DNA of 64,000 nt from assembly GCF_004010195.1 (NCBI RefSeq), contig NC_057749.1, forward strand, positions 20,087,663-20,151,662, read 5' to 3'. Below the pieces are notes generated by a model, which saw only the letters and a list, made by a program, of their open reading frames with translations, ran no database searches and was not told the DNA's origin. Shown one piece after another: positions 2,974-40,538 of the stretch. How positions within the stretch are numbered: the first letter of the stretch is position 1; every line of letters starts with the position of its first letter. The translations under genes and the position numbers were made by a program. This DNA is from Chiloscyllium plagiosum (lineage: Eukaryota).

Positions 2974-3147
<174 letters not shown>

Positions 3148-3737
3148 TAGGTATCTTTGTGTTCCTCTTTACCTTTGCTGGATCTAATTGAGGTAGAAAG
3201 CAGCTTCATGTTCCTGTTATACTGGATCAATTATGCCAAATTGGTTGCAATCGACCTGCAAATAGTAAGAAAGAATGCTGGGAAAATGCTTCACCTGTGC
3301 GCCATGCCTTGTGAGGAAGGCAGAGGTGAGCACAAAGGGATTGATCACAGTCCTGTTCTGGTTATTACCACCGCTTGACAGAAGAGTTAGGTGTTGTGGC
3401 CAATTGCAGATCTTCCTGTTGTCCAATCTTTCTTGAACATTGGCTCAGGCAATCACGCAGTCCAGAGCAAGGCCCACTTGGACCATTGTGGCTCTGCATA
3501 TCAGATTAGTTCCATTATTTATTTTTCTCCTTGATATATGTAGATCCTGCTCCAAATATACACACTGCATCCAAGACTCTCAGCAAAGTCATCTCATCTG
3601 TCTGCATTAATAAAAACCAACCCAGTAGCTCCCTCAGTGCTCTTGCTGTGTTCCTTTATGGTTGTTGAAATAGAATTCCCATCTAAATGAGGAAAGGGTT
3701 TGTTTGCACTATGATGTGGTTTCAGTTGGGCTTGGAT

Positions 3738-4678: not shown

Positions 4679-4906
4679 AATGTCCTTCTGTGTTTGTTCC
4701 GATCTCCATTTAAGGGTGAAGATGGTTATACTAGTTGAACAGCAGCGGAATGAGATGATACTGCTTCTCCTGCAGCATTCATTTTGATTTGAAGGACTAG
4801 AGGACCTTACATTGTTCATACAAATGATGACCTGAAGAACTACCTGGAGGGTGTTGGTAGTGGGAAATGAAACTTGATAGCCTGAAATTTAAAATGTTCT
4901 TCAGAC

Positions 4907-7900: not shown

Positions 7901-7984
7901 TAGATTGGGTTGGGATATCTGGTCGGCATGGACGGGTTGGACCGAAGGGTCTGTTTCCATGCTGTACATCTCTATGACTCTATG
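4907..7984 (+). mobile_element. Near full-length CR1 LINE (disrupted; two N gaps)
   Basis: ORF1 esterase-like remnant, endonuclease start CIYFNARGLTGKADEL, RT motifs [28 protein letters not shown] and FADDTK, and a (TCTATGAC)n tail. Contains stops and a small internal duplication at ~6978-7090. Confidence 0.9.
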
Positions 7985-8134
7985 TCCAGTTTGAGTGTCA
8001 CCTGAAAGAGGAATATACTTGTCAGCTCAAATATGACTTTTAGAGCTGGAGTCTTCAGTTGGGAAGTCTACAAACTGGAAGCTGGTGATTAATTGCTTAG
8101 TGATTTGGTAGATAGTGATTAAAATGTACAGTAA

Positions 8135-8356
<222 letters not shown>

Positions 8357-9384
8357 TAAATTGCAAGATTAGGAAGCTTGAAGTATTCAACTAAAGTACT
8401 AAATTTGGCTGTAAATTACCAGTGTTCAAGGTTCTGTTTGAAATAATGTGAACCACTCTGTCTCTGAAGTCTGATTATAATTTGGATTTGAACTTAGGGC
8501 CTTCTGTCCCATTTGATTTCAATTTTCCAATAATTGCCATGACATTTGTAGGATGTGAGTTGTAGTGTGGAGAATAAATAGGGTCTGCATTCCTGCCATC
8601 TGAGATCTTGAGTGTTGCGCTGCATAATATTATTCTGTTACTTAGCCCCGTTTGTGCTGTTGTTCAATTCTGTAGCATCATTCCACTGTCTTCCTAATAT
8701 ATTTTGATGTTGTCGCGTAGATACCAATTGTTTGGAGTGCTGGCACTCACCCAGTGTTCAGATTGTTTGTTGGTTGTTCTTGATATCTGGGTTGGGGGTT
8801 CATTTTCAAAGGAAAGGTTACATAGTCTTGGGCCTGTATCCATTAGAATTATAAGAATGAGACAGGATCTTAAATATCTCAATAAGACTGAATAGGATGA
8901 ATGCTGAGGGATGGTTCCCCTTGTGAAATAGACCAGAATATGGGACACTGTTTTAAAAAGGGAGTCTTGCCTTTTTTAAAAAAAAGGAATGGGAGTATGC
9001 CATTCAGCCCTTTCCGTTTGCCTTTCAGTCTGATCATGGCTGATTTAAAAAAAAGTCTGTTTATTTCTACTCTTTTTGTTACTGTTTCCTTTTTGCTAAC
9101 CAGTTGGCGTTTGCCTGAAACATCGATTTTCCTGCTGCTCGGATGCTGCCTGACCTGCTGCGCTGTTCCAGCAACACATTTTCAGCTCTGCCTTCACCCT
9201 ATCCAGTCTTATTAAGATATTTAAGATCCTGTCTCATTCTTATAACTCTAATGGATACCGGCTCAGACTATGCAACCTTTCCTTTTAAAATGAACCCCCA
9301 ACCCAGATATTGAGAAGAACCAACAAACAATCTGAAAATGGGTGAGTGCCGGTACTCCGAACAATTAGTATCTACTAGACAACA

Positions 9385-10460
9385 CCATTTCCCTACTAAT
9401 ACTGATTTCCTCCAGTTCCTCTCACTATGCCCTTTTTGCAACACCATTTTTGGGATGTTATTTATGTCCTTTTGAAGATAGAAGCAAAATATGTATTTTA
9501 TTGGCCTGGCAATGTACCCTACTATAACTTCCACTGTTTTTGATTGTATGGAACCTACATTTGTCTTTGCTAATCTTTCTCTTCACATAACTATAAAGGC
9601 TTTTACAATCAGTTTGTACGTTCCTCGCAAGCTTACACTCATACTCTTATTTTCCCACTCTGTTCTGTTTTGCTAAAATCTAAATTGCTCTCAATCTTCA
9701 AGTCTGCTGCTTTTTTTTGATCAATGTGTATCCCTTCCTCGAATCTAATCCTGTTCTTAATTTCCCTTGTTAGCCATGGCCGGGCCACCTTTCCCATTTT
9801 ATCTTTGTGCCAGACAGGACTCGGCATTTGTTGCAGTTTCTCCATGTACTCTTTAAATGCTTGCCATTGCCCTTTTAAATAATGTTCCCCAGTTTATCAT
9901 AGCCAGCTCATGTCTCATACCATTGTAGTTTTCTTTTGTTAGATTAAGGACCCTTGTTTCAGAAGCCGATTTGTCACTCTTCATCTTAATGAAGAATTCT
10001 GTCATGTGGCCAGTTTTCCCCAAGGGGCCTTGCACAGCTAGGTTGCCACTTACTCTTTTCTCATTACACAATGCCCAACCAAGGATGGTCTGTACTCTTG
10101 GTCCTTAATTTATTGATCCAGAAACTATCGCATAAGCACTCCAGGAATTCCTTCTGTCTGATATTGTAACTGATTTGACTTGCCAATCTATATGTGGACT
10201 AATGTTACCCATAATTACAGCTGTTTGTTGGTCCCTTTGTTGCTTGCTTCTCTAATTGTTTGTTTAGTGCCTTCCCTAATGTTAGGGTTGATACACAACC
10301 CCCATTCTCATTTTCTGTTCCTTTGTGTTTCTAAGCTCTACCCATACAGATTCACTTCACTAGAGCTAATGTACTTCCTCGCTGTTGCATTATGATCCTG
10401 TTCAACCAGCAAGGCTACCTCAACTCCTTTTCCTTTTTGTCTGTCCTTCCTAAAAATTGA
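9385..10460 (-). mobile_element. Old CR1 fragment (endonuclease/linker region)
   Basis: Minus-strand peptides RVLNLTKENYNGMRHELAMINW and PWLTREIKNRIR are CR1 ORF2-like. Confidence 0.65.
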
Positions 10461-10464
10461 ATAG

Positions 10465-10805
10465 GCTGTGGCTTAGTATTATTACTAGACTATTTAATTT
10501 CAAAATCCAGCTAATATTCTGAGAGCCTGAGTTCGAATCCTACCATGGCAGATGGTGGAAATTGAATTCAATAAAAATCTGGAATTCAGAATCTAAAGCT
10601 GACCATGAAACAATTATCAATTGCCATTAAAAACCTATTTCATTCACTAATGTCCTTTTTAGGGAATGAATCTGCTGTTTCCACCTGGTCTGGCCTATAT
10701 GTGACTCCAGACCTACAGCAATGTGTGACTCAACTGCCCTCAGAGGCATCTAAGGATGGCAATAAGTGTTGGCCTAGCCAGCGACACCCATGTGAATGAG
10801 TGAAC
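10465..10805 (+). mobile_element. Second tRNA-derived SINE family; related pieces at ~16030-16800, 24525-24750(-), 25480-26005, 43790-44400(-), 52540-52745
   Basis: B-box GTTCGAATCC followed by CCATGGCAGATGGTGGAA; a shared tail resembling GGGCAATAAATGCTGGCC recurs across the window. Confidence 0.65.
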
Positions 10806-11839
10806 AAATTGATAGTAAAATATACCTCTGGATATTTAGTCCCCATCTATGGTCACCCTACAGCCACGTATCCATAATCCCAGTATATTATGCATCTGCG
10901 ACTAATTGACCCACTCTGTTGCTCCACGCATAAAAGCACAAGTTTGTGGAATAAAGTCCTTGTCTTTTTAAGCTGAATGTGCTGCTGTGGTTTGTATTTT
11001 TGTGGAAGTTTCCTTTAGTTAAACTACATCTGCAGTACTGTGTACAGCTTTGCTTTACTTGCTTAAGAAAGAATATAATAGCATTGAACTACTTCTAGAG
11101 AAGGTCCACTGAATTGGTTCCGGGACTGAAGAGGTTGTCTGATGAGGAAAGATTGAGCAGGTTGGCCCCTATACTCATTGAAGTTTAGAAGAATTTGAAT
11201 TCATCTTATTGAAAATTTGAAATCTGGAGGGGACCTAGCAGGATAGATGCTGAGAGGATGTTTCCCCTATAGGAGGAGTCAGGAATTAAGAGGCATAGTT
11301 TAAAACTGTGAGTCTCCCATTTAAGATTAGAGATGAACATGTTTCTGTCAAAACATGGTTGTCTGTGAAATTCTCTTCTACTAAAAGTAGTATAGTCAGT
11401 CATAGGTTAAACCGGCATGGACGGGTTGGACCGAAGTGTCTCTTTCCATGCTGTACATCTCTATGACTCTATGGTTCATGCTGACGATGATGCCCTCTCA
11501 GCTAGTTCCGATTGCCTGCATTTGGTCCATATCAGTTTAAACCCTTCCCATCGGTGTACCTATCAAAATGTTTTTTAAATGTTGCTATTGTATCTGCCTC
11601 AAACACTCTCTCTGGCAGTCCCTTCCACATATGCACCACTCTCTGCATGAAGAAGTTGCCCCTCAGGTCCTCCTTAAATCATTCCCCTCATTAAATATGA
11701 GAGATTTTTGATTAACAAAGCAAATTATAGTTATTGGGGGGGGGGGGGGGGGGGAGACAGGAAAGTAAAGTTGAAGAAAATGAACTATGATCTTTTTGAA
11801 AGGCAGAACAGGCTTGAGGACTGAATATCATCAATAGGG

Positions 11840-12045
11840 TCGTGCTGGAAAAGGTCAGCAGGTCAGGGAGCATCAGAGGAGCAGGAAATACGACATTTCG
11901 GGCAAAATCCCTTCATCAGGAATGGTGATGAAGGGCTTTTGCCTGAAACATCAGTTTTCCTGCTCCTCTGCTGCCTAACCTGCTGTGCTTTCCAGCACCA
12001 CACTCTTGACTCTAATCTCCAACATCTTCAGTACTCACTTTCACT
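11840..12045. mobile_element. Inverted-arm Penelope-derived mini-element with two head-to-head hammerhead motifs
   Basis: GTGCTGGAAA..TTTCGGGCAAAATCCCTTCATCAG, then its reverse complement TGATGAAGGGCTTTTGCCTGAAAC..TTTCCAGCAC; same end as the PLE at 30640-30765. Confidence 0.75.
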
Positions 12046-12397
12046 TTGAGGGGCTGAATGGCCTACTCTTATTTGTATTCCTTGATTCAGGACTATGCTG
12101 AGCTAGTGTTGGTTTGTTTGTAAAGCATGAGTGCTCTCCATAATAAATCATAGAACCCCTCTGTGGAAAGAGGCCATTCGCTGTCTAATCTGCAAGCACC
12201 ACACTCTTGACTCTAATCTCCAACATCTGCAGTACTCACTTTCGCTTTGAGGGGCTGAATGGCCTACTCTTATTTGTATTCCTTGATTCAGGCCTATGCT
12301 GAGCTAGTGTTGGTTTGTTTGTAAAGCATGAGTGCTCTCCATAATAAATCATAGAACCCCTATGTGGAAAGAGGCCATTCGGCTGTCTAATCTGCAA
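11995..12397 (+). repeat. Tandem duplication, ~201-bp unit x2
   Basis: GCACCACACTCTTGACTC...CTGTCTAATCTGCAA occurs at 11995 and 12196 with only a few differences. Confidence 0.9.
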
Positions 12398-13399
12398 CGA
12401 CCCTCCGAAGAGCATCTTAGCCAGACCCAACCCCTTATCCTATCCCCATAACCCCATATTTACCATGGCTAATCCCATCAAGCATGAGTATCCCTGGGCA
12501 CTACAGGACAATTTGCCATGGCCATTACCTAACTTGCACATCTTTGGATTGTGGGAGGAAACCGGAGCACCCGGAGGGAACCCACGTAGACACGGGGACC
12601 ACAAGTTTCATGGCTTGTGTAACTGAACCCAAATAATTAATGTTTGTCTGTAACAACTGGAGACAGTGACTTTGCATTTATGCTCAAAAAAGCTGTTTGC
12701 CAACATTGTAGACAGTTCCAGTACAGACAATTTCCATATCTTTGTCAGCGCTTCTCTGTTGCAAGTTCTAACATGAAACATTGATTAGACTTTCAGCATT
12801 GTTTCAGGGCTTTTTGGATGCTCAGGGTTTAGCTTCAATCAAAAGACTGAGATCTGTTGGTTTGATTCTGTTTTGCTTCTGGCTTTGTTGTAGCTCATTG
12901 CCAGTAATGTCCGCCTTAACACATTGTACATGTGAAAGTGTTAAATCTGGAATACTGAATAACTTGCCTCCAGGGGTATTGCTAATTCAATTACAAATCA
13001 TGAGTACAAATGTAGTTTGCTATTAGAACATTCTTGCCCAGGTCAATCCTGTCCAAGTGATCACAGTGTGAATACATTGGTTATTTTCAAAGTTCGAAGT
13101 TTGCACAGAGTGTTCATCTCTGAGATTACGGACTGTTGAGTCTTTGCATTTGGTTTAAGCCTTTTTATTTGCATTTTATTGTTATTTGGTTTTGATTTAT
13201 GTCTGGTCCTTTCCTGGAGCAGTGCATTGATGGGTTTTGAATGAGGGTATGTCATACCAAGTGTCTGGAAGAAGGAAGCATTTGCGTAGTTCCTTTCACA
13301 CCTCAGCACAATTAGTAGTCCAGTTATATTTGGTTATCACATGTGGGTGTTGTGCACAGGAAGATCTTTCAGCTGAGAACAGTATGAGTGACTGGATTC

Positions 13400-13749
<350 letters not shown>

Positions 13750-14082
13750 TAGAGGTGGGGTGGTGACTGGCTGTTGCTTCGAATTTGTAATTCATCTAGA
13801 CTGCTGTCGTTTGAAAGCCTCCAGAAGTTGTGGCTTGATGATACAAAGCTGCATTGATCTTGTGGCAGGAACTTGCATGTGGAGGTAAAGTGTCCTTTCA
13901 AGGAAAGTGGTGAGAGGATAGAAGATGTAGATGTGCGAAGGGACTCTGATGTCCTTGTCAATAAGTTAATTGAAGGCTAACATGCAGATGCAGCAAGTTA
14001 TTGGGAAGATTAATGGACTTTTAACCTTTATCACATGAGGATTTGAGTGGAGGATTTGTGAAGTCTTGCTTCAGTAGTATAG

Positions 14083-14580
14083 GGACGATAAAAACTGCAG
14101 ATGCTGGAATCCAGGGTAGACAAGCAGGAGGCTGGAAGAACACAGCAAGCCAGGCAACATCAGGAGGTGAAAAAGTCAACATTTCAGATGTAACCCTTCT
14201 TCAGGACTTGGATGCAGTCCTCTGAGGTGCAGAATTCCAAACATAACATTGAGTTTTTAAAAAACCTTTATCATGGTCCTAAATGGCATCCTTCCTGTTT
14301 GTTTATAAATTAAGGCTTACTCTTGTTCCATTGACAGTCCAGTGGCATTGTTCAAAACTGCTGGTTGAAGCTGGACTGGATTCCTGAAATGATAGGGGAG
14401 AAGGAACTGAGAACCTTCACGGTATTTGAAGGCGATGGCATAGATTAATAGAGGCCTACAGCATGGAAATGGGCCATTTGACCCAACTCAGTCCTGAAGA
14501 AGGGTTACATCCGAAACATTGACTTCTCCATCTTCTGATGCTGTCGGACTTGTGTTCTTCCAGTCTCCTGCTTGTCTACT
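14083..14580. mobile_element. Inverted-arm PLE mini-element enclosing copied local DNA
   Basis: Arms at ~14088-14208 and ~14491-14580 are mutual reverse complements. TSD TTCAGTAGTATAG (14070-14082) / TTCAATAGTATAG (14581-14593). Confidence 0.75.
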
Positions 14581-17500
14581 TTCAATAGTATAGAACTGGT
14601 TAGCCTGCAGCGGAGTATCGTGTATAGTTTTGGTCTCCTTATCTGAGGAAAGATATTTGTGCCAGAGAGGGAGTGCAAGAAAGGTTTACTAGACTTGTTC
14701 CTGTTTTGGTGGTACATCCTGTGAGAAGAGTTTGGACAAACTAAGCCTGTATTCTCCGTAGAGGTTTGAAGAATGACAGGTGACCTGATTGAAACTTGCA
14801 AAATGCTTAAAGAGATTGACAGGGTAGGTGCAGGTAAAATATTTCTGCTGGTTGGGAGGTCAGTAATCCGGGAGCATAATCTATAAATAAGCAGGAAGGA
14901 TGCCATTTAGGACAAACATGGAGGTGGTTGTTTTTAACTCAGTGGGTTATGTTTGGTATTCTGCACCTCCAAGGATTCTGGAAGCTCAGTTTTTGAGTAA
15001 GTAAAGGTTGATAAATTTTTGGTTTATAAAGACAAGAGTGTTAATATAAATAAGAAGCATTGAAGTGTTCAATCAGCCATAGTGATATGAAATGTTGGGA
15101 AAGGCTGAATGGCCTATTCTTGTTCCATTGACAATCCAGTGGCATTTTTTTGAAGCCACTGGTTGATGCTGGGCTGGATTCCTGAAATGATAGGGTAGAA
15201 GGAACTGAGAACCTTCACAGTATATGAAGACGATGGCATAGAGTAAAAGAGGACTGCAGCACAGAAATAGGCCTTTCGGCTTAACTCGTTCACGCCAACC
15301 AAGCTTCTAAACTGAAGTGGTCCTGTTTTCCTGTGTTTGGCTCAACCTTTCCTATCTGTGTACCTGTCCAAATTTCTTTTCAATATTGTAATTGTATCCA
15401 CCTGTACCATTTTTTTCCTGGCAGCTCATTCCATATATACACCACCCTCTCTGTGAATAAATTGCCACTCAGGTTTCTTTTTAACTCTTTCCCCTCTCCC
15501 CTTAAATCTATGCCCCCTAATTTTGGATTCCCTTAACCTGGGGAAAAGACCTTTCCAGTTTAGTAACATCCTCCCAATAGCAGGGCAACCCAGAATTCTA
15601 AGCAGTACTCCAAATGTGGAGTCTTCTACTGTTATAATATGCCATCCCAACTCCTGTATTCTGTGTTCTGACTGAGGAAGGGAAGTGTGCCAAACACCAC
15701 TTCCACCTTTCTGTCTTCATGTGACATCCCTTTCAAGGAACTATGTACCTGCACCCTGAGGTGTGTCTGTTTGACAACACTCCCTAGGCCCCTACCACTA
15801 ACTGTGGTAAATCCTGCCCTGCTTTGTCTTACCAGAATGCGACATCTCACACTTATCTGAATTAAATTCCATCTGTCGTTCCTTGGCCCACTGGCCCTGT
15901 TGATCAAGACCTCACTGTACTCTTAGATAACCTTTTTCACTGTCCGCAGTGAATTTTGGTGTCATCCACAAACTTGCTAACCGTGGCTGCTGTATTCTCA
16001 GTGATCATGACATGAACCAGAAATCCAAAAGCTCAGGTCAATCCTGTGAAGACATGGGTTCAAATCCACAACAGCTGGTGGAATTTAAATTACATTTAAT
16101 AAATTTGCAATGCAGCCTTAATAAAGAACATAAGGACTAGGAGCAGGAGTGGGCTGTCCAGCCATTCGAGCATGCTCCGCCACTCAATAAGATCATGGCT
16201 GATCGTTTTGTGGACTCAGATCCACTTACCCACATTTTCACCATATCCCTTAATTCCTTTATTTTTCATAAAAGTACCTACCTTAGCTTTAAAAGTGATT
16301 ACTGAAGTAGTGTCAACTACTTCCCTGGGCAAGGAATTCCATAGATTAACAACCCTCTGGGTGAAGAAGTTCCTTTTCACTTCAGTTCTAAACCTGCTCC
16401 CTCTAATTTTGACGCCAGGCCCTCTTGTCCTAGTTTCACCTACCAGTGGAAACATCCTATCTATTTCTGTTTTATAGATTGCCCTCATAATTTTATATGT
16501 ATCTATAAGATTCCCCCACCCCATTCTTCTGAATTCCACTGAATATAATCCCAATCTATTCAGCCTCTCCTCATAAGTCAAAGTTGACCAAAAAACAATT
16601 ATTAATTGTTGTAGAAACCCATCTAGGAAAAGAAATCTGTCCTTATCTGGTCTGGCCTACATGTGACTCCACATATAAGTTATATAGTTAAGTCTTAAAT
16701 TGCCCTGTGGACAGCAAGCCGCTCTTAGATAACCACTTTCCCTGTCCACCATATCACCAATTTTGAGGGTAGAAGGCCAATTAGAGATGGGTAACAAGTT
16801 CTGTTCCCCCTTCCTCCGCTTATTTTGCCGTACAAAATCAATGACTTCTGTTAGAATTTGGGGCTCTTATTCAGTAGGGCAGGGCTTAGACAGTTTATGG
16901 TAAGGCCCCTGGGGAGAGTTATTGAACCACACTTGTACCCTGGGGTACAAGTGTAGTTCCATGAAAGTAGCATCAGAGTGGTGACTAAGGCATTTGAACA
17001 CTTGCCTTTGTCAATCATGAGGTTCATGAAGAGGATGCCCTCGTTGTGTTGTCCTATTTGTGTCACCTGATAAATTGGATCCTGCTTGACTGTAATCCTT
17101 CTACCTCAGCAGATTTGTGACTGCTGTCATTTCACCATTTGGGTTTTGAAAGGCAGGTTGTAGTTGCAGTCCATTTTTGGTTTATCCAAAATTGCAGAAC
17201 TGCACTCGAGCATACCAACTTGCTGCTTGTTTGATGAAAGTGTTTCAATCCTTTCTCCTACCTTAAGTCTCTTTGCTAAACCCTACACTAACATTGTCTA
17301 ACTCAGCTGAGCATTCACTTCCCCACTCCCCAGTCTATAAATCTTAATCTACTATTCTTTTGACCTCCCTTTTCTCAGATGCTATTCACAGTAATACTTG
17401 AAGGATAATGTACTTTCATATAAAGAGCATTGGCAGAATCAACCATATTGTTTTGTATGTTATTTTGGGGTGTAGCACACTCGAGCATTAGATACACATT

Positions 17501-18351
17501 GAAATAGAGCAAATTTGGTCAAGATTCCAGCTACTGGCTTGATTTTCTTAATCTGTGTGATCCCAGAATGGATGAAAACATTTGTTGCTATCCGTCAGAT
17601 GTGCTGTGGGTCCCAGGTGAATCGAACATCAATGACAATAGACAATAGGTGTAGAAATAGGCCATTCGGCCCTTCGAGCCAGTGCCACCATTCATTATGA
17701 TCATGACTGATCATCCACAATCAGTATCCTGTTCCTGCCTTATCCCCATAACCCTTGATTCCACTATATTTAAGAGCTCTATCAATCTCTTTCTTGAAAG
17801 TACCCAGAGACTTGGCCTCCACCGACTTCTGGGGCAGAGCATTCCATACACTCACCACTCTCTGGGTGATGAAGTTTCTCCTCAATGATGGAACTTGGGA
17901 GTGGATGACAAACTCTACCATTCAGAGTAACAACGGAGCTTGACTCCACTTGCTTCATATAGATAGCCATGTTAAAATTCTCATTGGGAAGGGAAGCATG
18001 CACCATCTGTGCTGACTTCAATTAGTTTGGAACAGCATGATTAGGTTCATTTATATTTTACATTGAGTTAAGGCAAATGCATCGTGTGCAAATAAAATTT
18101 ACTATTGTGAATGGGTTTGTGCCTGCATTGCAACGTTTGCCTTTTTTTTAACCTTCTATTATAGCTCCTTCGTGTTCCACAAGCTTTCCCATTGCATTCC
18201 CACTGCCTGTAAGAGAGAGGTGTTCCATACATCAGGAGTCTGCATGGAAACTTAGATTAAGATCACATTTAACTCTATGCTAGGACTACACAAATTTTAG
18301 GATCTATTTTTAGCCCAACCTCAAATGGAAGGTATGAAGTAGGACTCAAAA

Positions 18352-18542
18352 AGTACATGATGAAAGTTAACTGCTAACCCTTTCACGCTATGAAGCTTTC
18401 CGAGGGCACTGTGACGGACATTTAACTGAACTTATAACTGAACTGTCGGTGTTGTAACTTGCTTATCTTGTAAAGTTCTCTGGGGCACCTGCGCCTGGAA
18501 TGTAAGTCTGTTGTCTGAAAAGACCGTCACTGGTCTGATGTT
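18352..18542 (+). ncRNA. Candidate intronic box C/D snoRNA/scaRNA (unassigned)
   Basis: C box ATGATGA 18357-18363, D box CTGA 18535-18538, a weak terminal stem, and the D box sits 84 nt upstream of the exon 5 acceptor. Confidence 0.4.
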
Positions 18543-18622
18543 GCTCCTTACTGAGCTGACCTGTGTATTGGGTGGATTTTTTTCTGCCTTGGATTTAATG
18601 TGGTCTGTGTCTTCTCTTGCAG

Positions 18623-18697
18623 GACTTTGGCAGCCTGTCCAATCTGCAGGTCACACAGCCTTCAGTAGGAATGGCCTTCCGGACTCCAAGGATCTAA
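18623..18697 (+). CDS. RPS17: RPS17 exon 5 (to stop)
   Basis: CTTCTCTTGCAG acceptor; encodes [24 protein letters not shown]. Total CDS is 402 nt, or 133 aa. Confidence 0.97.
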
Positions 18698-18724
18698 AAT
18701 TATTTGTGTGACATCCCTCTAAAA

Positions 18725-23033: not shown

Positions 23034-26000
23034 GAAAGATAAAGCAAGCCAGCATGATTGGCTATGCTAATGTGCACGGGACCAACAAATTGTACAAACT
23101 GGAAGAGAACAAAGAGTTTGGGCGAGGCGCAGTGAGGCGAAGTGAACATTTTTCTGGCTACTGCAATTTTGATTTTGCAAGATTAAAGTCTTGTGAAAGA
23201 ATTTCTTCGTCTCCTGGTAATTTTTTATAGATTCTTCCACAACACTAGTAAGAACTCTCTGAAAGGTACCTGCCTAGAGAAGGGATTTGCACACAAAAAA
23301 AAGTTTGATACTGACCAGAGAGCAAATCTGCAGAGGAAGATACCAAGAAAAGATTTGATTGCTGGCTGGTTTTGAAATTTGAACTTTTCTGTAAATCTTA
23401 ATTGACGGTTTTATTGGACCATATTGTAAGGGGGAAGGTAAAACATAGGTTTAGATAAATAGTTGTTTATTAATTATTCTCTGTTAGACTTTTAAAAAAA
23501 ATTAAAGTTGTTCACGTTTACTTTAAATAGTGACTTTTGGGATAGTTCTTTGCCTCTTGAGTTTTCACAGATTACAGTAAGGGGTGAATCTTTTGTGAGT
23601 GTTGGGTTTAAATTAGCAGAGGGGTAACAAGATCCTTGGGTAGAAGTAGGATATCAATGGTTGCCAGATGAGCTACTGTCCCCATCTTAGCCTTTACAGA
23701 TTCTGCCACAGTCAAGCCATCGGGTGCTATTCAGTAGAGTTGAGGCTTAAGGTTCGCATTAGGATTTGTGAAGGGGTTAGTGTTAGGGTTAAGATTAGGA
23801 TTAGGCAAGTGCTCGGACTAGGAGTGGAGTTGAGGTTAGAGCTAGGGCCAGTGCTTGGGCTAGGGCTAGGGATCGTGTTTAGGTTAGGGCTTGGTTTGGG
23901 CTTAGGGGAGGGTTATGGTTAGGGCATGGGTTAGGGATGGGATAATAGTTGTGGTTAGAGCAAGAGCTAGGTTTAGGGTTGGGGATGAATTAGCTAGGGT
24001 TATGATTAGTTTTAGAGTTCAGGCGAGGGCTAGAGTGTGTAGTTAGGTATAAGGGCTAGATAGGCATAGGGTTCGGGTAAGGATTAGATTATAGTTAGGA
24101 TTAGAGCTAATGCTAGGGTTATGGTTAGGGATATATTGAGGGTTAGGGCTAGGGCATGGTCTAGATTTAGGGTTAGTTTGAGTGGTTAGTGTTATGATTA
24201 GGGATAAGGATAGAACTAGGTTTTGGGCTAGGGTTAGGCCGAAGGTTAGGGTTCGGGTTCCAGTCTCCTTGGAGGTGGGTGGGGGGGAGCTTTCAATCTC
24301 TGCCAGATGATTTACCGCCTCTATCTTAACCTTTGCATGTTCTGCTGTAGCCAAGCTATCGTTTGCCATTCAGTAGAGGTAGTGGTTCCTTGTTGATTCT
24401 AACAGCTGCTCACCTTTCTCTCTGTATGATTTTCTCCTACTCAAGCACTACCCTCATTGAATGGAAGATTTTGGCACCATTTCTGGTGATAGTTTGCCAT
24501 TGTGTGAGCATTTGTTTTTATTTATTCACTGGATGAGGGCGTCACTGGCTAGACCAGCATTTATTGCCCATTCCTAATTGCCTAGAGGATAGTTAAGAGT
24601 CAACCACATTGCTGTGGGTGTGGAGTTACATGGAGGCTAGACCAGGTAAGGTTGGCAGTTTCTTTCCCAAGAGGACATTAGTGAACCAGATGGGGTTTTA
24701 GAACAATCGACAGTGGATTCATGGTTAGACTCTTAATTCCAGATTTTTTAAATGTTTTGTTTTTATCAACACATTCCAAGTGCTGATGTTCATTGCAGAG
24801 ACCTTTAGCCAGACTTTGCAGCTGCCTTTGACCGCCGTATTGAATGTGGTGTATCTCTGAGCTGCCAGCAGTTTGGGGGGGTTGTAGTTGGCTGACATGC
24901 CATCCATCTCGGCTGCTGTGAGATGGTTGTGGCCACGGCACATAGCACATCTGTCTGTTGGAGGACGCTCTCGTTTATTCAGCTCAAACTTACAAAATAT
25001 GGGGCGAACAGGTAAATCCCCACAATTCCCAAAATGCTGGCTAAAATTCAGTCACAGTGATGTAGGGGGCAGATCCAGTTGAAAATAAGATGCCCACCCT
25101 CCCTGGAAACTGGGTGGAGCTTCTCCTCCTATCACAGACTGGTTCCCGCATGTGCTTGCTGGTGATTGGTTCATTACTGAGCCTGTCAGCAAGAACATGG
25201 GAGAGAACCAACCTGTGATTGGAGGAGCAGCGAGCAGCCAGGAGTGACTGAAATATAGGGGGAGACGCAATAGGTGCTCTACTAATAAACACCATCTAAA
25301 TTTAAAAGTTAAAAAAAAGCAGCTTGTTTGGAACAGTGTGGCTTTGTGAATATGTGATGGGAAAGTATGAGCTGTGGCCTCACCAATCTGGGTGCTGCAT
25401 TATATACACGCTAACAAGTGAATTATAAACAGCAGGAGGCCATTCAGCTCTTCAAGCCTGTTCTGCCATCCAGTGCAGGCAACGGTATCATCACTGGACT
25501 GTTAATCCTGTGAAATGCCCTGGGAATCATGGTTGGAAATACACCACAGCAGATGGTGGAAATCAAATTCCATTAAAAAAGTATGGAATTATGAGTCTAA
25601 TTAAGTGTCATGATTAGGGTCATAATTTTAAGGAGATTGGAGGAAGATTTAGGGGAGATGTCAGAGGTTGGTTCTTTACACAGAGAGTGGGTGGTGCATG
25701 GAATGCACTGCCAGCAGTAGTAGTAAAGTCAGAGACGTTAGGGACATTTAGGCGTCTACTGGACAAGCACATGGATGGCGGTAAATTGAAGGGTGTGTAG
25801 GTTGAGATTAAGATAGATACTCGGCACAACATCTGTACTGTTCTATGTTCTTTGTTCTATGTTCTAATGATGACCAAGGATCCATTGTCAATTGTGACTC
25901 CAAACCCACAGCAATGTGGTTGACTCTTAAACTGCCCCCTGCTAGTTAGGAATGGGCAATAAATGCTGGCCTACCCAGTGACGCCCTCATCCCATGAATG

Positions 26001-26045
26001 AATAAAACAGATCATGCCTGATCTGATTGCGACCTCAGTTCCACA

Positions 26046-27618
26046 TTGCTGGATGTCTTGAAACGGGTAAAGGTGGATAAATCCACAGGACCTGATCAGG
26101 TGTACCCGAGAACTCTGTGGGAATCTAGAGAAGTGATTGCTGGGCCTCTTGCTGAGATATTTGTGTCATCGATTGTCACATGTGAGGTGCCGAAAGACTG
26201 GAAGTTGGCTAACATGGTGCCACTGTTTAAGAAGGGTAGTAAGGACATGCCAGGGAAATATAGACCGGTGAGCCTGATGTCGGTGGTGGGCAAGTTCTGC
26301 TTGGAGGGAATCCTGAGGGACAGGATGTACATGTATTTGGAAAGGCAAGGACTGATTAGGGATAGTCAACATGGCTTTGTGTGTGGGAAATCATGTCTCA
26401 CAATCTTGAGTGAGTTTTTTGAGGAAGTGATAAAGAGGATTGATGAGGGCAGAGTGGTAGATGTGATCTATATAGACTTCAATAAGGCGTTCGACAAGGT
26501 TCCCCATGGGACATTGATTAGCAAGGTTGGATCTCACGGAAAACAGAGAGAACTAGCCATTTGGATACAGAACTGGCTCAAAGGTAGAAGACAGAGGGTG
26601 GTGGTGGAGGGTTGTTTTTCAGACTGGAGGCCTGTGACCAGTGGAGTGCCACAAGGATCGGTGCTGGGTCCTCCACTTTTTGTCATTTATATAAATAATT
26701 TGGATGCGAGCATAAGAGGTATGGTTAGAAAATTTGCAGATGACACCAAAATTGAAGGTATAGTGGACAGCGAACAGGATTACCTCAGATTACAACAGGA
26801 TCTTGATCAGATGGGCCAATGGGCTGAAAAGTGGCAGATGAAGTTTAATTTAGATAAATGCGAGGTGCTGCATTTTTGGAAAGCAAGTCTTAGCAGGACT
26901 TATACACTTAATGGTAAGGTCCTAGGGAATGTTGCTGAACAAAGAGACCTTGGAGCGCAGGTTCATAGCTTCCTCAAAATGAAGTCGCAGGTAGATAGGA
27001 TAGTGAACAAGGTTTTTGGTATGCTTTCCTTTATTGGTCAGAGTACTGAGTACAGGAGTTGGGAGGTCATGTTGCGGCTGTACAGGACATTGGTTAGGCC
27101 ACTGTTGGAATATTGCGTGCAATTCTGGTCTCCTTCCTATCGGAAAGATGTTGTGAAACCTGAAAGGGTTCAGAAAAGATTTACAAGGATGTTGCCAGAA
27201 TTGGAGGATTTGAGCTACAGGGAGAGTTTGAATTAGCTGGGGCTGTTTTTCCTGGAGCGTCGGAGGCTGAGGGGTGACCTTATAGAGGTTTACAAAATCA
27301 TGAGGGGTATGGATAGGGTAAATAGACAAAGTCTTTTCCCTGGGGCGAGGGAGTCCAGAACTATAGGGCATAGATTTAGGGTGAGAGGGGAAATGATATA
27401 AAAGAGACCTAAGGTGCAACGTTTTTACACAGAGGGTGGTACGTGTATGGAATGAGCTGCCAGGGGAAGTGGTGGAGGCTGGTACAATTGCAACATTTAA
27501 GAGGCATTTGGATGGGTATATGAATAGGAAGGGTTTGGAAGGATATGGGCTGGGTGCTGGCAGGTGGGACTAGATTGGGTTGGGATATCTGGTCAGCATG
27601 GACATCTCTATGACTCTA
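26046..27618 (+). mobile_element. Young 5'-truncated CR1 LINE with open RT domain
   Basis: 396-aa ORF 26046-27236 with [25 protein letters not shown] and FADDTK; TCTATGACTCTA tail; near-identical to the copy at 6609 onward. Confidence 0.95.
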
Positions 27619-33240: not shown

Positions 33241-33870
33241 TAAGGAGTACAGTCCTCTCCATAACTCACTTTCCCAACTATCTTTGTGCCATCAGCAAAT
33301 TTACCTCTCATACCTTTGTTGCCTTCACCCAATCATTGATACACATTGTGAAGAGCAGCAACCCAATGACACACCATATGTGACATCTTGCCAAGTCTGA
33401 AAAGGACCCAATTATATCCATTCTGTTTGCTGTTCGTCAGCCATTCTATCACATTAATCCAAGAGCTTCTATTTTATATAATAACCTTTGACCTGGCACC
33501 TTATAAAATTCTTCCTGAAAATCTAAACATAACACATCCACACAGCTCCCCTTTATCCACAGTACAGCTTGCTTCTTTAAACAGCTCAAATAAATTAGCA
33601 AATCCATGTTGGCTTTGCTTGACTACATTAAGCGCCTCCAAAAGCCATATTACAATGCTTTTAATAATTGCTTCTAGCATTTTCTCTATGACAGATGGCA
33701 TTAAGATGGAGTATTAGACACGATTGTGTTGAATGACAGAACGGCCTACACCAGCTGCTAGCTTTTATGTTTGGAGGTTGAGTTTGTGAATGAAAGTGTG
33801 GGTTTGGAAGCTGAGTTTGTCAATACAAGTGGGTTGAAAAGCTACAGAACGATTATATTTTGTTAATACT

Positions 33871-34560
33871 TGTGGGAAAAGATCTGCCACCCTGCCAACC
33901 CAGAAGAGGCCCACAAAAGCAAGCTTGGCCAAACGGTACCAAAAACACCCAGAATGCCTCAGCAGGGACCAAGCAGGCTGACAAGCGAAACTGGACAGCA
34001 CTCGCAGACAAGGGAATACACTTCAAGCTCCCACTATCAATGACAGAGCACCACAGCTATCCCAAAGCTCCGAGGGCAGTTTCACAACCCAGCAATACCA
34101 AAGCCCAACAAATAGCAGGTCAGACAGAGAGGCATCAGCAAGAGCACTATTCCCAGAACAAGACAATGGAAGCACCTCACCACTTCAGAGGAGACATTAG
34201 CACCTACCTGTGAAGAGGAATGGAAGCTCCGAACCCATGGATACTGTCAGGAAGTTGCTTTGTGTAGAGAATTAGGACATTCCTCCGATAACTGTTTTCC
34301 GATTAGCAGCATCGTAACTAGATTACTCCATTTCCAGATACATTGTATTTTCCCCATTTCTAATTAGCCCCATTGTACAGGAATATTATAAAAACTGTCT
34401 TCATCCTCAGCTTGAGGAAGAGAAATTCTGATCTACCTGCACAGATTGTGTCAGCCTAGTCAATTTCTCTTCCAGCCATATGGTTTGTCATAAACAGCAT
34501 GTCAATTTTACCCGATCTGGTTTGTGTGGTCTCTACTTTGTTGGGCAAATTTCTCCGACG
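33871..34560 (+). repeat. 5' LTR (690 bp)
   Basis: TGTGGGAAAA...TCTCCGACG (terminal CA mutated); TATA box near 34385; direct repeat of 37841-38541. Confidence 0.95.
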
Positions 34561-34563
34561 GTT

Positions 34564-34580
34564 TGGCGTTAGTCGGCAGG
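34564..34580 (+). promoter_or_regulatory. Primer binding site, tRNA-Ser
   Basis: TGGCGTTAGTCGGCAGG matches TGGCGTAGTCGGCAGG, the complement of the tRNA-Ser 3' end CCTGCCGACTACGCCA, with one extra T. Confidence 0.85.
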
Positions 34581-36189
34581 CCCTTTTTGTCTCTCAACGG
34601 GGTAAGCGAACTGACATTTCAAATTTAGCCCAATTCGGACCTGGCGGTCAGCCCTGCCCCAGCGAGTCTGACCAGAGAAAGGCTGGACGACCGTGGAGTG
34701 TGGCCACAATTCTGATCTAGCAACTGCGGCAAATTGGCATCAGCTGCTACGACTTGGCCTGTGGAGGTAGTCTGGTAAGCAAATAAATTAATCACCAAAT
34801 TTAACTATTTGGAAACTGAGCAGTGACTTGGCCTGTGGAGGTAGTCTGGTGGGCAAGTAAGTTAACTAATTGGCAGCCGGTAATTCGGAATTGACTTGGC
34901 CTGTGGAGGTAGTCAGCTGTACTAAATTCATTTCCTAAATTTTGCAAGAAACAGAAATTTGGCCCATGTGTGATCCAACTTGAGGCCAGGCCGTGTATCA
35001 CGAGCCAGGAGAAAGATGGTCGGGCGGAGAAAGTATGGTTCGCCGATTAAATTTTCACTTTAAAACCCACAGATCGTGCGAAATTGGCAGGGGCCCTGCT
35101 GTCTTGTTTGTCTGTCTTGTGTTTGTCCTGTATCTGTCTCGTCTCCTTGTCCCGTTTGTTTCTGTGTTTGTCAGTGCTGCAGTCTGTTCTTTACTCCCAG
35201 CTCAAACCACAGGTGTATGAGGTTGTGGGACCCCCAACTCTCCGGAGAAGGACCGCCCCGGGGACAAGTCTAACTTGTCCCGCTGAGGCAGCAGTCCATG
35301 GACACCAAATCTCTCAAGGAAGTACCAAGCACCAGGGTAACCACTTACACTGAGAGAGCAAAGTAGTGACCCTTTTTATATAGGTCACCAGCCAATATTG
35401 TTTGGGAGCAGAATGGGGAAGGTAGGTGTGGCGACCCTTCGTGGCCTGAGAGTAAATAAGTTTAGGGAAGTGGTCAGCACACCCCCCCAGCCCTTAAATT
35501 GATCCCACAGAGTCCCGAAAACTCTGAAAAACAAAGGTCCCTTCCCACCCCCCCTTCCGTCAATAGCCCACACCTACCTTGTTGCTGAGGAACTTGGTCC
35601 TGGCGGGGGGAGGGGGGAGGGGGGGGGAATGAGGTGGCTGAGTTTCTGGCTTCCCAGGTGCAGAGGGCAGCAGAGAGAGATACTGACCAGCAGCCCGTCA
35701 GAATTCATGTTGGTAATCAATAGGGTCCTAGTGCCTGGATGAACTTATTCACTAAACCTTGAAGAAACTTTTGAGTTCTTTATGTTCTGCCTTGAATGCA
35801 CATTTGCTTGCTGGTGATTGAATGTCTGTTTCAATCCCTGCAGCTCAAGATCCAGAGGTGACTTGATTTATTTTGCATTCGGTGATCTATGATGGTTTTT
35901 CTTTTATCAGTGCTTTATGAAAGTTGTGCATAAGTTTTATTAATGAGGTATTAACACTCCCACCCTTCTCTGCTTGTCCTGCAGTCACTTGCCGAACCTG
36001 TCAATCACTCCCTGCCTGCGTGTTCGGTGAGCGCTCTCTGCCTTTTCTTTCTCCTCGAAAGCTAAGTACAGCACTTACAAATCATCCCAATACGTCCAGG
36101 ATGCCATGGAGGCACGGACATCCACCCTCTGCCAGGAGATGCCAGCTGTGGGAGCTGGGCAACCCCAACCACGTGGTGAGAATGGCCCA

Positions 36190-36310
36190 GGGCTGAAAAT
36201 GGACAAGAGTACCCAATAAAGGCATGGTGGAAAGGCCCGTACCTGATCCTGATGACGACCCGGACAGCTGTGAAACTGGAAGGACGGCCCGAATGGACAC
36301 GTACCGCCCC
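36190..36310 (+). pseudogene. Retroviral integrase C-terminal remnant
   Basis: [24 protein letters not shown] matches the W.GPY.VLLTT.TA.K..G...W motif. Confidence 0.8.
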
Positions 36311-36379
36311 GCTGCAGGAGGGCTCCACAACCAATGAGCAAGGACCGGACAGAGGAAGGCACCACTCCAACCACCAAGG

Positions 36380-37707
36380 ATGGATCCAGCTGCTCTCACA
36401 GCAGCCACCAGCACTCTCGGCCTGACCTGCCTGACCATCACACTGTGGCTTGCTGGTAAACGGAGACAAGGGACAGGGCATTTCATAACCCGCTTTGACT
36501 TGTGGTCCAACAACTTTCTGAGAATGGCCCGTGGGTATGCCCAGAGATTTAATCAGACCCGCTGCTGGGTCTGCACTAGGGTCCCTTTAGGGGGCATTCC
36601 TTTAGGCTCAATCCCCTTAAACATCTCTGACATGGAGGAGTGGTGGCTCAACCCAGACAGATCCCCTGAAGTTACTACACTGGCCATGCCCAACTACGGG
36701 GACAACAGCCCAGCCCACTGGAGGTCGGCGGGTTACCACCTGGACTAATTTAAAGGGTGGTTTTACCCGGCCTACAACCTCTCCCCAGCCCTGACCATTG
36801 CTGACACAGACGGCCCATCTGTTTAAAAGGCACACAACCATCCAGTTGGGAGGCTGGCTGGAGCCGATGCACTGACTCCCTGCTCCTGACTCCTGCAGCA
36901 CGCTGATCCACTGCAGAAGGCAGCATTTTAAACCTACAGGTCCTCAACAGGACCAGCCAGAACCCCACCTTCCTCACTGTCTGGACAGGGACCCAGACCT
37001 GGCATCTGCGGACCTACAGCGGCACCTATTTTATCTGTGGCTGCAAAGCCTACCCCTGGTTGCTGGTATCCTGGACTGGGAGCTGTTATGTTGGGTACGC
37101 CGTATCATTCCTGTATCACTCCCAGTCCCCTCCCTTCCCAAAGCCCATGACCCACAGTAGACGAGCCCTCGCTACCATTGAAGCAGCTCTCTACCTGATG
37201 TCACCCCACTCTACAACCCTACGGTTACAGGTAGAAGCCTATCACCTCACCGCCACACTAGAAGAGGTGGCAAGCTCCACAGCAGACGCACTCACCCAGC
37301 TGAATGCGGAGGCGGTTGCCATCTGTTCTGTGGCTCTGCAGAACAGGATGGCCCTGGACTACCTGCTCGCTGCGAAAGGGGGCACATGTGCCCTCGTTGG
37401 TGCTGACTGCTGCACTTGCATTCCTGACCCCAGTGAGAACATCACAGACCTGGCCCAACATATCCAGCAGGCAGCTTCTGTCCTGCATGGTCAGAGCTCC
37501 CACTGGGACTTATGGGAATGGGCATCCCCCTGGTTGGGGTAATGGGGCACAGCCCTACTACAGGGTCTGATAGCCTTCATCACAATCATTGCTGGGCTTG
37601 TAGTGTTGGCCATGGCCATTCGACGCCTCTGTGCAATCCTGCTACCCTCTGTTCCCCCTCACCACTCAGCTAGCACAGATCCACTGGGAGAGCATCCCTG
37701 CCCCTGA
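36380..37707 (+). pseudogene. env: Gamma-type retroviral envelope, disrupted
   Basis: Hydrophobic leader, SU CWVC, GTYFICG..AY...W.G.C, degenerate furin site HSRR, ISD LQNRMALDYLLAAKGGTC (37336), CX6CC and a TM helix. Stops at 36746 and 37540 plus frameshift(s). Confidence 0.92.
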
Positions 37708-37840
37708 GATAGCCTCTCCTGGGCCAAACTCGGACACCGAGAGCTACCTGTCACCGAGCCCCCCTCACCCAACAATCCCCTGGCTACATTGCCCCCTTCT
37801 CATTCCTCCCCTAAGCAAAACCAAACAAAAACGGGGGAAT

Positions 37841-38541
37841 TGTGGGAAAAGATCTGCCACCCTATCAACCCAGAATAGGCCCACAAAAGCAAGCTTGGCC
37901 AAACGGTACCAAAAACACCCAGAATGCCTCAGCAGGGACCAAGCAGGCTGACAAGCGAAACTGGACAGCACTCGCAGACAAGGGAGTACACTTCAAGCTC
38001 CCACTATCAATATCAGAGCACCACAGCTATCCCAAAGCTCCGAGGGCAGTTTCACAACCCAGCAATACCAAAGACCCACAAACAGCAGGTCAGACAGAGA
38101 GGCACCAACAAGAGCATTGATCCCCGGACAGGACAATGGAAGCACCTCACCACTTTAGCGGAGACATTAGCACCTACTGTGAAGAGGAATGAAAGCTCCG
38201 AACCCATGGATACTGTCAGGATGTTGCTCTGTGTAGAGAAATTAGGACATTCCTCCGATAACTGTTTTCCGATTAGTATCGCTGTAACTAGATTACTCCA
38301 TTTCCAGATACAATGTACCTGGAATGTATTTTCCCCATTTCTAATTAGCCTCATTGTACAGGATTATTATAAAAACTGTCTTCATCCTCAGCTTGAGGAA
38401 GAGAAATTCTGATCTACCTGCACAGATTGTGTCAGCATAGTCAATTTCTCTTCCAGCCATATCGCTTGTAATAAACAGCATATCAATTTCACCCGATCTG
38501 GTTTGTGTGGTCTCTACTTTATTGGGTAAGTTTCTCCGACA
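37841..38541 (+). repeat. 3' LTR (701 bp)
   Basis: TG...CA termini, AATAAA at 38470-38475, follows the PPT. Confidence 0.95.
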
Positions 38542-40538
38542 ATACTCCCTGGATAGACATTATCAGTCAGTATCAGGCACTCCACTGGGAGTGCCTGATA
38601 CTGACTGATATAATAAGAGCACTCAGACAAATACCTTTTTCTTACCACTCAGAGATATCTTTACCCTACTCAGGTAAATGAGTCTATGCTGTTTTGATCC
38701 ACATCTTAAAGGTGGACTCAATATTTATTGTTCAAGGTGAGAAATGAGTGAAAATTAGATTTTTTATCCAATGTTAACAAGGACACCTTTTGGAAGTGTT
38801 GTTGGGTGATTGGGGGTATTAGTGACACCCTTGGGATAGTTGGGGACTGCATCACTGTGGAATCATGAGAACCTGAAATACTGAGAAAGATAGACTCCTG
38901 GGATAGATCTGATTCTACAACTCCCCCCTCCTGCTGTTTGCAGGTCCTTTTTGGGAGCTCAGGGTTGAAGATTAGATTCCCTGCAGTGCAGAAACAGGCC
39001 CTTCGGCCCAACAGGACCACACCGACCCTCCTAAGAGTAACTCATCCAGACCCATTCCCATACCCCTGACTAATGCACCTAACTCTATGGACAATTTAGT
39101 ACAGCCAACCCACCTAACCTGTATATCTTTGGATTGTGGGAGTAAACCAGAGCACCCGGAGGAAACCCACGCAGACACGGGGAGAATGTGCAAACTCCAC
39201 ACAGTCAGTCGCCCGAGGCTGAAATTGAACCTGGGAACCAGGTGCTGTGAGGCAGCAGTGCTAACCACTGAGCCACCAAACATGAAGGATCATGTAGTTC
39301 TTGAATAAATTAAGGCAAATAGTTTGGATGAACATTTTTTAGTCCTTAGTCTGCATGGTATGTGTTAACCTGTTCGAGTGCCTGACAAGATCCTTCTTCT
39401 GAGGTAACTTTGGTGGCACAACCACATCTAAAATAAACACAAAGAACTCCAGACGCTAAGGGTATGAAGCAAAACATGGAAAGTGCTGGAGAAACTCAGC
39501 AGCTGTGACAGCATCTTTGGAGCAATGAGTCACTGAACTTGAGACGTTAATTCTGTTTTCTTCCTTGGATGCTGCCACCTGCTGAATTTCTTCGGTAACT
39601 CATGTGTTCGTTCCATCTGCACGTCCTGACTTGGAGAGTGTAAGTCTGCTCCTTATCAGATAGTAACACAGAGACAGATCCTGAAAGGCAGCAGGACAGG
39701 TAGATGAGGTAGTTAAGAGGAATACGGGATACTTTCACAAGGCTCTGTTACGAATGAGGTTATGAATGGAGCTGGATATAATGTTTAGTTCGGCCACAGC
39801 TGGAGTACTATGTGCAGTTCTGGTCGCCACACTATAGGAAGGATATGATTGTAGTAGAGAGGGTGCAGAGGAGATTCACCAGGATGTTGCCCAGGTTATG
39901 ATAGACTGGGGTTGTTTTCCTTACAGTTGGGAGGGGTGGGGGTTTGTTACCTGAATGAGGTGTGCAAAGATCTGAGGGACATAGGTTGGATGGTTGGGAA
40001 GAAACTTTTCTGCTACTAGAGGGGTCAATACTAGGTGAGGCGATGCAGTTTAAAGGTGAGGAGCAGGAGATTTAGAGGGGACTTGAGAACATTATTTTTT
40101 TACCTGATATTTGAAACTCAGTGCCTGAAAGGCTGGTAAAATTGAGACATTTGAGAACTATTTAGATGAGCACTTAAAATGCCACACTTACAAGGCTAAA
40201 GGCCAAGAGCTGGAAAGTGGGATTAGAATAGATGAATGAATGTTTGATGTCCACTGGGCCACATCTCTTCCCTTGCTGTAAAAACTCTATGACTCTCTCC
40301 ATGACTCTAAGCTTGAAGAGACCTAGAGGTTTTCTGCATGATTCTGTCTGAATCAGTTGGGGAACCAAAGTCATATCCAGGGTTATATTCGTTGTGAGAA
40401 TCACTACAGTGAAGGGGGGAGAAATGGATTGATGTGTTGTGTAAAATATGGAATAAACTAGTGACAGCTTACAGAAACCAGTATCTTTACCCATCAACAA
40501 TGACAAAACATGTGTGATACAAAGACCATCGTTTCCAA

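Follow-up and report, generated by a model that had tools for sequence, protein, structure and literature searches.

A shark provirus that keeps env and a tail of pol: a candidate member of a helper-dependent subfamily without gag-pol

Introduction

A 64,000-nucleotide stretch of Chiloscyllium plagiosum DNA (NC_057749.1, positions 20,087,663 to 20,151,662 of the forward strand; here called the window, whose positions serve as coordinates throughout) contains an endogenous retrovirus (ERV) that keeps two long terminal repeats (LTRs) and an envelope gene (env) and in which gag, protease, and reverse transcriptase (RT) are not detected. The locus raises the question of whether such an element arose by a single deletion here or belongs to a family that multiplied without a gag and pol of its own, and from which class of ERV it came. 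An earlier note on this DNA had taken it for a non-autonomous env carrier of a class III, ERV-S-like lineage, possibly complementing an env-less partner. The explanation that we somewhat favor is that it is a decayed copy of a helper-dependent, gag-pol-less, env-retaining subfamily derived from a class I shark retrovirus. The parent would have combined an epsilon/gamma-like pol with a gamma-type env, and the loss of gag-pol would be common to the copies.

Results

Anatomy of the provirus

The provirus is real. Its body runs from 33871 to 38541, with 3280 nt between LTRs of 690 nt (5') and 701 nt (3'), in which 649 of 689 aligned bases are identical (p = 5.8%; Kimura two-parameter distance, 0.061; 3 indel events). 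The features below, among them the target-site duplication (TSD), primer-binding site (PBS), and polypurine tract (PPT), draw in part on contigs of four public runs compared with positions 33300 to 37840; X1 and X8 are different organisms, X5 is a small run (62 million letters) of unrecorded type, and X22 is a raw RNA run.

33866..33870, + strand: left TSD, ATACT (sequence; LTR start at 33871 set by contig loose ends, 36 + 32)
33871..34560, + strand: 5' LTR, 690 nt, TGT...ACG, terminal CA decayed (sequence and contig ends of other copies)
34387..34391, + strand: TATAA, presumed TATA box, with a counterpart at 38368 (sequence; function inferred)
34410..34476, + strand: long hairpin in both LTRs, presumed R region, with a counterpart at 38391-38457 (folding versus shuffles)
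34564..34580, + strand: PBS for tRNA-Ser(AGA/TGA) with one extra base (match to the XtERV-S PBS)
34602..34607, + strand: donor-like site, candidate major splice donor, exon end 34601 (sequence; X5 depth in bin 34516-34667)
34751..34914, + strand: three leader repeat units (starts 34751, 34825, 34893) with an identical 22-nt core, candidate packaging region (sequence)
34915..35980, + strand: leader and non-coding middle with no detectable gag, protease, or RT; multi-copy contigs collinear to 35849 (Pfam, tblastn, contigs)
35792..35829, + strand: 38-nt piece common with another, more abundant repeat family (contig loose ends, bin depth)
35960..35984, + strand: polypyrimidine tract and splice acceptor, AG at 35983-35984 (acceptor rule; X5 contig start at 35984)
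37827..37839, + strand: PPT (sequence; PPT-to-LTR joints in other copies)
37841..38541, + strand: 3' LTR, 701 nt, TGT...ACA, with AATAAA at 38470 (sequence)
38542..38546, + strand: right TSD, ATACT (sequence)

A chance match of five flanking bases has a probability of 0.0011. A 4-bp duplication (ATAC, with the LTR starting TTG) was conceivable since T precedes both LTRs; it was ruled out by the flanks of other copies. Contigs of other copies go loose before 33871 (36 in X1 and 32 in X8; agreement, 0.38 to 0.39) and behind 34559 (22 and 21), which sets the ends as TG...CA and the TSD as 5 bp, a length observed in this single copy only.

The PBS consists of the first 16 bases of the XtERV-S serine PBS plus one inserted base, and its motif found no match in the human ERV (HERV) supplements. 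The donor-like GGTAAGC, between 34774 and 34775, falls in unit 1 of the threefold leader repeat, a region that is bypassed or substituted in contigs of other copies; a second donor-like site lies between 34601 and 34602, about 20 nt 3' of the PBS. The R-region hairpin (-24.9 kcal/mol; z = -4.1 and -4.6) was equaled in stability by 0 of 200 shuffles. Leader hairpins were rejected as significant structure, their stability being no greater than that of shuffles. By our own scoring rule, the acceptor at 35984 is one of 2 strong acceptor-like sites in the 3280 nt. The signature of a spliced-env retrocopy is absent: donor and acceptor are both kept, 1.2 to 1.4 kb apart, and both LTRs are complete.

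Most of what the earlier note had read at this locus was thus found again, namely, the LTRs (5.8% apart, within the 5 to 7% given there), 5-bp TSD, tRNA-Ser PBS, PPT, 3.28-kb internal region, donor-like GGTAAGC at 34774, and acceptor-like CCTGCAG at 35984; the donor-like site nearer the PBS is an addition. The cis architecture that it called intact holds in that all signals are present, but the 5' LTR ends in CG where the 3' LTR ends in CA.

The 38-nt piece at 35792-35829 coincides with loose ends of 28/15 contigs in X1 and 12/14 in X8, with bin depths of 1776 and 7297. No second copy of it was found within the 64-kb window, and it is possibly a common cis element of non-autonomous elements.

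Coding content of the internal region

A Pfam search of 34561-36200 in six frames, with stops read as X, returned zero families at E <= 1, and tblastn with 129 Gag/Pol proteins gave a best score of 28.5 bits there, versus up to 30.0 bits in 20 shuffles. Both results agree with the earlier statement that no gag, protease, or RT is recognizable. A decayed gag start near 35.3 kb, suggested by resemblance to the eye, had no support above shuffles. What is left of pol is its 3' end, which resembles the integrase (IN) of murine leukemia virus (MLV).

36180..36425, + strand: pol 3' remnant, an MLV-type IN C-terminal domain (core 36228-36296), in a frame that overlaps the env start (MLVIN_C, PDB, protein search)

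This tail matched Pfam MLVIN_C at an E value of 3.3e-5 and 23.9 bits, under the 29.2 cut-off, and in PDB it matched the MLV IN C-terminal domain (2m9u) at an E value of 1.2e-5, with no match to foamy integrase at E <= 10. An unbiased phmmer search of 1.84 billion representatives gave 9 matches; two (P0022 and P0023) were dropped as repetitive artefacts, and the 7 usable ones were tails of MLV type, found in teleosts, a turtle, a primate, and one unnamed contig. Only unnamed clusters were obtained with the tail in the protein atlas, and 0 of 4 candidates from a word search with it held up. When the 129 queries were ranked against the tail, a teleost group (P0036-P0041) came out best, its top three members scoring 48 to 52 bits. 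The RT of P0037 scored 508 bits to gamma-type RT versus 192 to foamy RT, and this protein, as a best match of the tail, is the sole proxy for the RT class of the element. These teleost class I Pols have about 190 unassigned residues between protease and RT.

Copies of the element in two organisms

Contigs covering a single locus in X1 have depths of 12.6 to 15.1. Relative to 14, and read for order of magnitude only, the median summed depth in X1 was about 400 for the LTR, about 30 (7 to 73) for the leader, 25 for bin 35884-36035, and 62 for the IN tail and env; relative to an assumed 16, the X8 values were 325, 17, 19, and 33, respectively. All internal bins were therefore much deeper than a single locus, and the LTR start adjoined at least 36 other flanks. 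In X1, record 2 (depth 165) joins 34517-34799 to 35040-35144, thus connecting the PBS region with 35144. Record 5 (depth 156) is collinear from before 35234 to 35849, and record 4 (depth 68) extends from before 35107 to 35673. Since these records are collinear with the element, many copies share its non-coding middle at the place where gag would be expected. None of the best-supported loose ends listed point to gag or pol. Joints that delete env were found at depths of 58, 100, and 100 in X1, and one further joint was found in both X1 (18) and X8 (88). Together, the contigs suggest a multi-copy family in at least two organisms, with what appear to be tens of copies at many insertion sites.

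Several observations weigh against a loss of gag-pol common to the family. Summed contig depth is no copy number, and the contigs compared are the best-supported part, with a further 4195 records, 161 joints, and 1162 loose ends beyond them. Among those listed, no multi-copy contig spans 35849-36228. The sole spanning piece, X8 record 21 (35825-36154), has 14 differences and a depth of 20.7 and may derive from the orthologous locus; the short side of an X8 joint of 35038 to 36058 (depth 128) is only 28 letters long. In addition, env has about double the depth of the leader, and half of the copies with env may therefore be built differently upstream and may even include a full pol. The proposal of a non-autonomous env-carrying element is thus upheld as to its many copies, but the final junction, at 35.85 to 36.2 kb, lies in no listed multi-copy contig.

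The envelope gene

The env gene follows the IN tail and is broken.

36380..37707, + strand: gamma-type env of about 442 codons with signal peptide and membrane anchor, frame broken (Pfam, translation, relatives)
Within it, + strand: CWVC, 36563-36574; boundary of surface and transmembrane (TM) subunits, near 37165; immunosuppressive domain (ISD), from 37336; CX6CC, 37387-37413

Three stops (36746, 36904, and 37540) and a net frameshift close to 36.8 kb interrupt the frame, and the longest product from the env ATG is 122 amino acids. The search for relatives yielded 20 from 2695 candidates, all 20 with PF00429, and 12 of the 13 that are named come from a shark or ray. Both the cartilaginous-fish host and the pairing of an integrase remnant with a gamma-type env, as the earlier note had it, are borne out by these matches and by those of the tail to MLVIN_C and PDB. 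The compact size on which it remarked is likewise found (about 442 codons), but it is typical for the group (441 amino acids in XtERV-S and 404 to 427 in the relatives), and the frame is not open. In an unrooted tree of the TM region (25 rows, no class III row; P0021 and P0130, in which no ISD motif was found, left out), env fell in a set (98/94) with P0002, P0003, P0014, P0017, and P0020.

Of 39 columns conserved in 18 relatives, env keeps 34, and the loss of 5 has a P value of 0.13 at an assumed 7% per residue. Almost every other X1 contig has a different sequence at the stops at 36746 and about 37540, which makes two of the three stops private to this copy. Because the conserved columns are kept as decay after insertion predicts and two of the three stops are private, env was probably whole or nearly so when this copy inserted. 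Relaxed selection was rejected as the cause of the long env branch (1.12), the conserved columns being kept as expected and the divergence of the fusion peptide (5 to 8 of 32 positions) having its equal in one natural pair (5 of 32).

Searches for related loci elsewhere gave little. The N-terminal part of env had no usable match in the protein atlas, no related locus turned up in viral contigs, whether queried with an integrase or with env as a piece or as an alignment, and a metagenome scan with one env found none. A scan with the env alignment returned 14 loci from 68 candidate stretches, all distant (24 to 35%) and none with a TSD, and 4 matches to the LTR-end/PBS pattern in viral contigs were taken as chance. 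Two side observations concern the relatives: in the close env relatives P0002, P0005, and P0016, the region corresponding to the start of this env is preceded by an additional N-terminal part that closes with a furin-like site, and contig L001 (142-5164; also L002) has the order env, LTR-like stretch, PBS-like site, gag, and probably represents a multi-copy fish ERV that was collapsed in assembly.

Class of the element

The class I affinity of the pol remnant is favored on sequence grounds, and class III membership, which the earlier note had preferred, is not supported, because class I teleost integrases are the best matches of the one pol remnant present and because the 5-bp TSD and the PBS are not diagnostic. 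A dUTPase-like segment after IN is absent, the MLV-type tail standing directly before env, and the end of pol overlaps the start of env, as in class I ERVs with a gamma-type env. With regard to the TSD, Rev-A, a gammaretrovirus, is described as making 5-bp TSDs (PMC3790719), and the account in PMC4422553 gives 4 bp for all gammaretroviruses other than Rev-A. PBS type is treated as an unstable trait across ERVs in PMC4724089, and the pol that accompanies a gamma-type env in fish and amphibians is recorded as epsilon, gamma, or SnRV related (bioRxiv 2021.11.23.469661; PMC9967133). TSD length and PBS should therefore be used with caution, as they do not classify an ERV without an RT.

On the other side of the balance, the Pol set was built from a profile seeded with the tail's own matches, which makes the ranking partly circular, and none of its members is an identified class III Pol. 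Neither an RT nor a helper sequence was recovered. Of 216 class III HERVs, 39 scored for GPY/F or chromo motifs. PMC1224870 assigns the GPY/F motif to gamma-, epsilon-, delta-, lenti-, and errantiviruses and gives spuma-like viruses as not determined. TGT...ACA is listed as a class III motif (PMC3601003), and the env of HERV-S is reported to be PABL related (PMC4724089).

Hints of splicing and expression

An X5 contig (record 11) with one difference from this locus starts at 35984, and the depth of its bin (2.21) is that of this contig alone. X5 depth is present in bin 34516-34667 and zero over 34668-35731, and X5 contigs with 0 to 1 differences from the locus cover 35984-36460, 36627-36880, and 37318-37619. 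This pattern is that expected of spliced RNA, hinting at splicing at the acceptor at 35984; the type of X5 is not recorded as RNA, the edge of a contig is no proof of a start, and the donor-acceptor joint is not among the rows listed. Three ends are conceivable for the upstream exon: 34601, 34774, or a site in rps17. The host gene rps17 lies upstream on the same strand (about 2995-18700, +), about 15 kb from the provirus; three of its exons match Pfam Ribosomal_S17e, and a stretch at about 18623-18697 we take to be a fourth. Since the three rps17 donors shown end in G, read-through splicing into 35984 would be possible. In this copy, 9 ATGs stand between the acceptor and the env start, so env translation from this acceptor would probably be inefficient. 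In X22, 0 reads matched, from about 6% of the run, which makes no test of expression.

Other features of the window

A degenerate telomere-like GGGTTA/GGGCTA array occupies 23800-24250, and a 404-codon open frame at 26022-27233 (+) encodes the RT of a long interspersed nuclear element (LINE) (Pfam RVT_1). Many further fragments of LINEs and of short interspersed nuclear elements are present. An inverted repeat at 38561-38612, 20 nt 3' of the provirus, gives sub-threshold microRNA matches; the Rfam search returned 2 such matches, both outside the element.

Discussion

A model for the origin of the subfamily

In the explanation that we favor, a founder would have lost gag and nearly all of pol and kept the LTRs, Ser PBS, leader, acceptor, PPT, integrase tail, and env. 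Transcription from the 5' LTR (TATAA at 34387, R hairpin at 34410-34476, poly(A) signal at 38470) would yield a short genomic RNA containing the PBS, the leader, and the PPT, which the Gag-Pol of a complete relative may have packaged, reverse transcribed, and integrated in trans, the helper integrase cutting with a 5-bp stagger. Env would not be needed in cis, and spliced RNA could express it via the acceptor at 35984. Amplification of the subfamily to tens of copies may date back tens of millions of years. The LTR divergence corresponds to an insertion age of 138 million years at 2.2e-10 per site per year, the rate assumed for the elephant shark (PMC4422223), 43 million years at 7e-10, which is our own assumption, and 14 million years at 2.2e-9.

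Loss of gag-pol with a near-normal env kept is the reverse of the env loss listed as a pattern of intragenomic ERV spread (PMC10536682). No env-only or gag-pol-less amplified ERV family was found described in the open-access literature searched. With what appear to be tens of copies in at least two organisms, this family would offer natural material for the question of whether an env can be maintained in trans.

Alternative explanations

The parentage could be mixed. A mosaic mobilized by a class III, ERV-S-like helper, with ERV-S-like LTR ends, PBS, and leader and with the IN tail and env captured together from a class I virus, would account for ends that resemble those of XtERV-S (LTR size, TGT...ACA, Ser PBS, and 5-bp TSD) and for an env that matches the XtERV-S Env in size and motif order. 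TSD length reflects the integrase of the helper and not the remnant's own, so the 5-bp TSD is compatible with such a helper. HERV-S is reported to have taken a PABL-related env (PMC4724089), and XtERV-S has 19 deleted copies (PMC8278194). Class III sequence was detected nowhere in the element by the Pfam and Pol searches, though; no end feature is diagnostic; and the three elephant-shark ERV lineages described in PMC4422223 are SnRV-like and epsilon-like. We regard the mosaic as unlikely. That an ordinary full-length ERV underwent a one-time deletion or rearrangement here, with the depth contributed by complete relatives, is a little less likely again. It would fit the last junction, which is in no multi-copy contig among those listed, and the pieces from the second organism (94 to 97% alike), which match about as closely as its flank piece does and may come from an orthologue. 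It is hard to square with multi-copy contigs that are collinear through 1.3 kb of the non-coding middle, with bin 35884-36035 at 19 to 25 times single-locus depth, and with the lack of a gag branch among the best-supported loose ends.

A further alternative is the bipartite arrangement raised in the earlier note. Here the family would be kept for the Env that it provides in trans to a gag-pol partner that has the same ends but no env, and neither half could spread from cell to cell without the other. In its fullest form, an ancient shark retrovirus would have split into two genomes, an env-only satellite with a working acceptor and an env-less gag-pol partner, possibly class III. An env that looks whole at insertion (conserved columns, private stops), an acceptor that is kept and perhaps used, and the retention of env with loss of gag-pol, opposite to what is reported for intragenomic spread (PMC10536682), would all suit it. 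An abundant env-less partner sharing the leader would raise leader depth, yet in neither organism is leader depth above env depth; variants with deletions in env reach multi-copy depth; and the 9 ATGs upstream of env in this copy speak against efficient supply. No partner was found, although a few master helper copies would go unseen in depth data. No result supports complementation and two weak ones run contrary to it (leader versus env depth, and the env-deleted variants), and we consider the arrangement improbable in both forms. Should a mutually dependent env-less partner be found, this would be a natural two-part retrovirus; none was found described in the open-access literature searched. 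As for co-option of env at this locus as a syncytin-like gene, X5 contigs identical to the locus (0 to 1 differences) over the env exon could be cited for it, but X5 is not on record as RNA, X22 is uninformative, and three stops and a frameshift leave 122 amino acids as the longest product from the env ATG; the broken frame refutes a co-opted full-length Env, and co-option of any kind is very hard to credit.

Comparison with known systems

XtERV-S (PMC8278194) resembles the element in its LTRs of about 700 bp with TGT...ACA, Ser(AGA/TGA) PBS, 5-bp TSD, and gamma-type env of about 441 codons with an N-terminal CWxC and CX6CC, and it too has deleted derivatives with two LTRs (Xt-S4 to Xt-S22). 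Such env motifs are, however, also present in fish envs linked to class I. It differs in a class III pol that ends in a dUTPase-like segment, whereas the element has an MLV-type IN tail before env, and its deleted copies usually keep the start of gag and the PPT, env retention not being described in the available text of that source. HERV-S has no dUTPase, and its env is related to the PABL/PRIMA41 class I envelopes (PMC4724089), under whose name many of the env relatives found here go; it is defined by a class III Pol, and the element has no RT. The ERVs with gamma-type env surveyed in anamniotes (bioRxiv 2021.11.23.469661) occur in cartilaginous fish, in several pol classes, and their high-copy lineages tend to keep env; a gag-pol-less, env-keeping subfamily is not described in the accessible part of that survey. 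The teleost class I Pols P0036-P0041 (tuna and unnamed contigs) give the best matches to the tail, and their pol ends equally soon after the tail motif, but they are complete Pols of bony fish, with their extra stretch between protease and RT, and are not the parent.

A further comparison is with defective, helper-dependent proviruses that express env. A defective locus related to FeLV-B is described as secreting a receptor-binding domain that acts in trans (PMC9967133); it is a single locus, whereas the element appears to belong to an old family of tens of copies. Helper-dependent deleted proviruses are already known, and usually env is the part that is lost. SFFV of mammals and EAV-HP of birds are defective, helper-dependent proviruses that express env, and in having lost its replication genes and kept env, with an apparent dependence on a helper, the shark element is like them.

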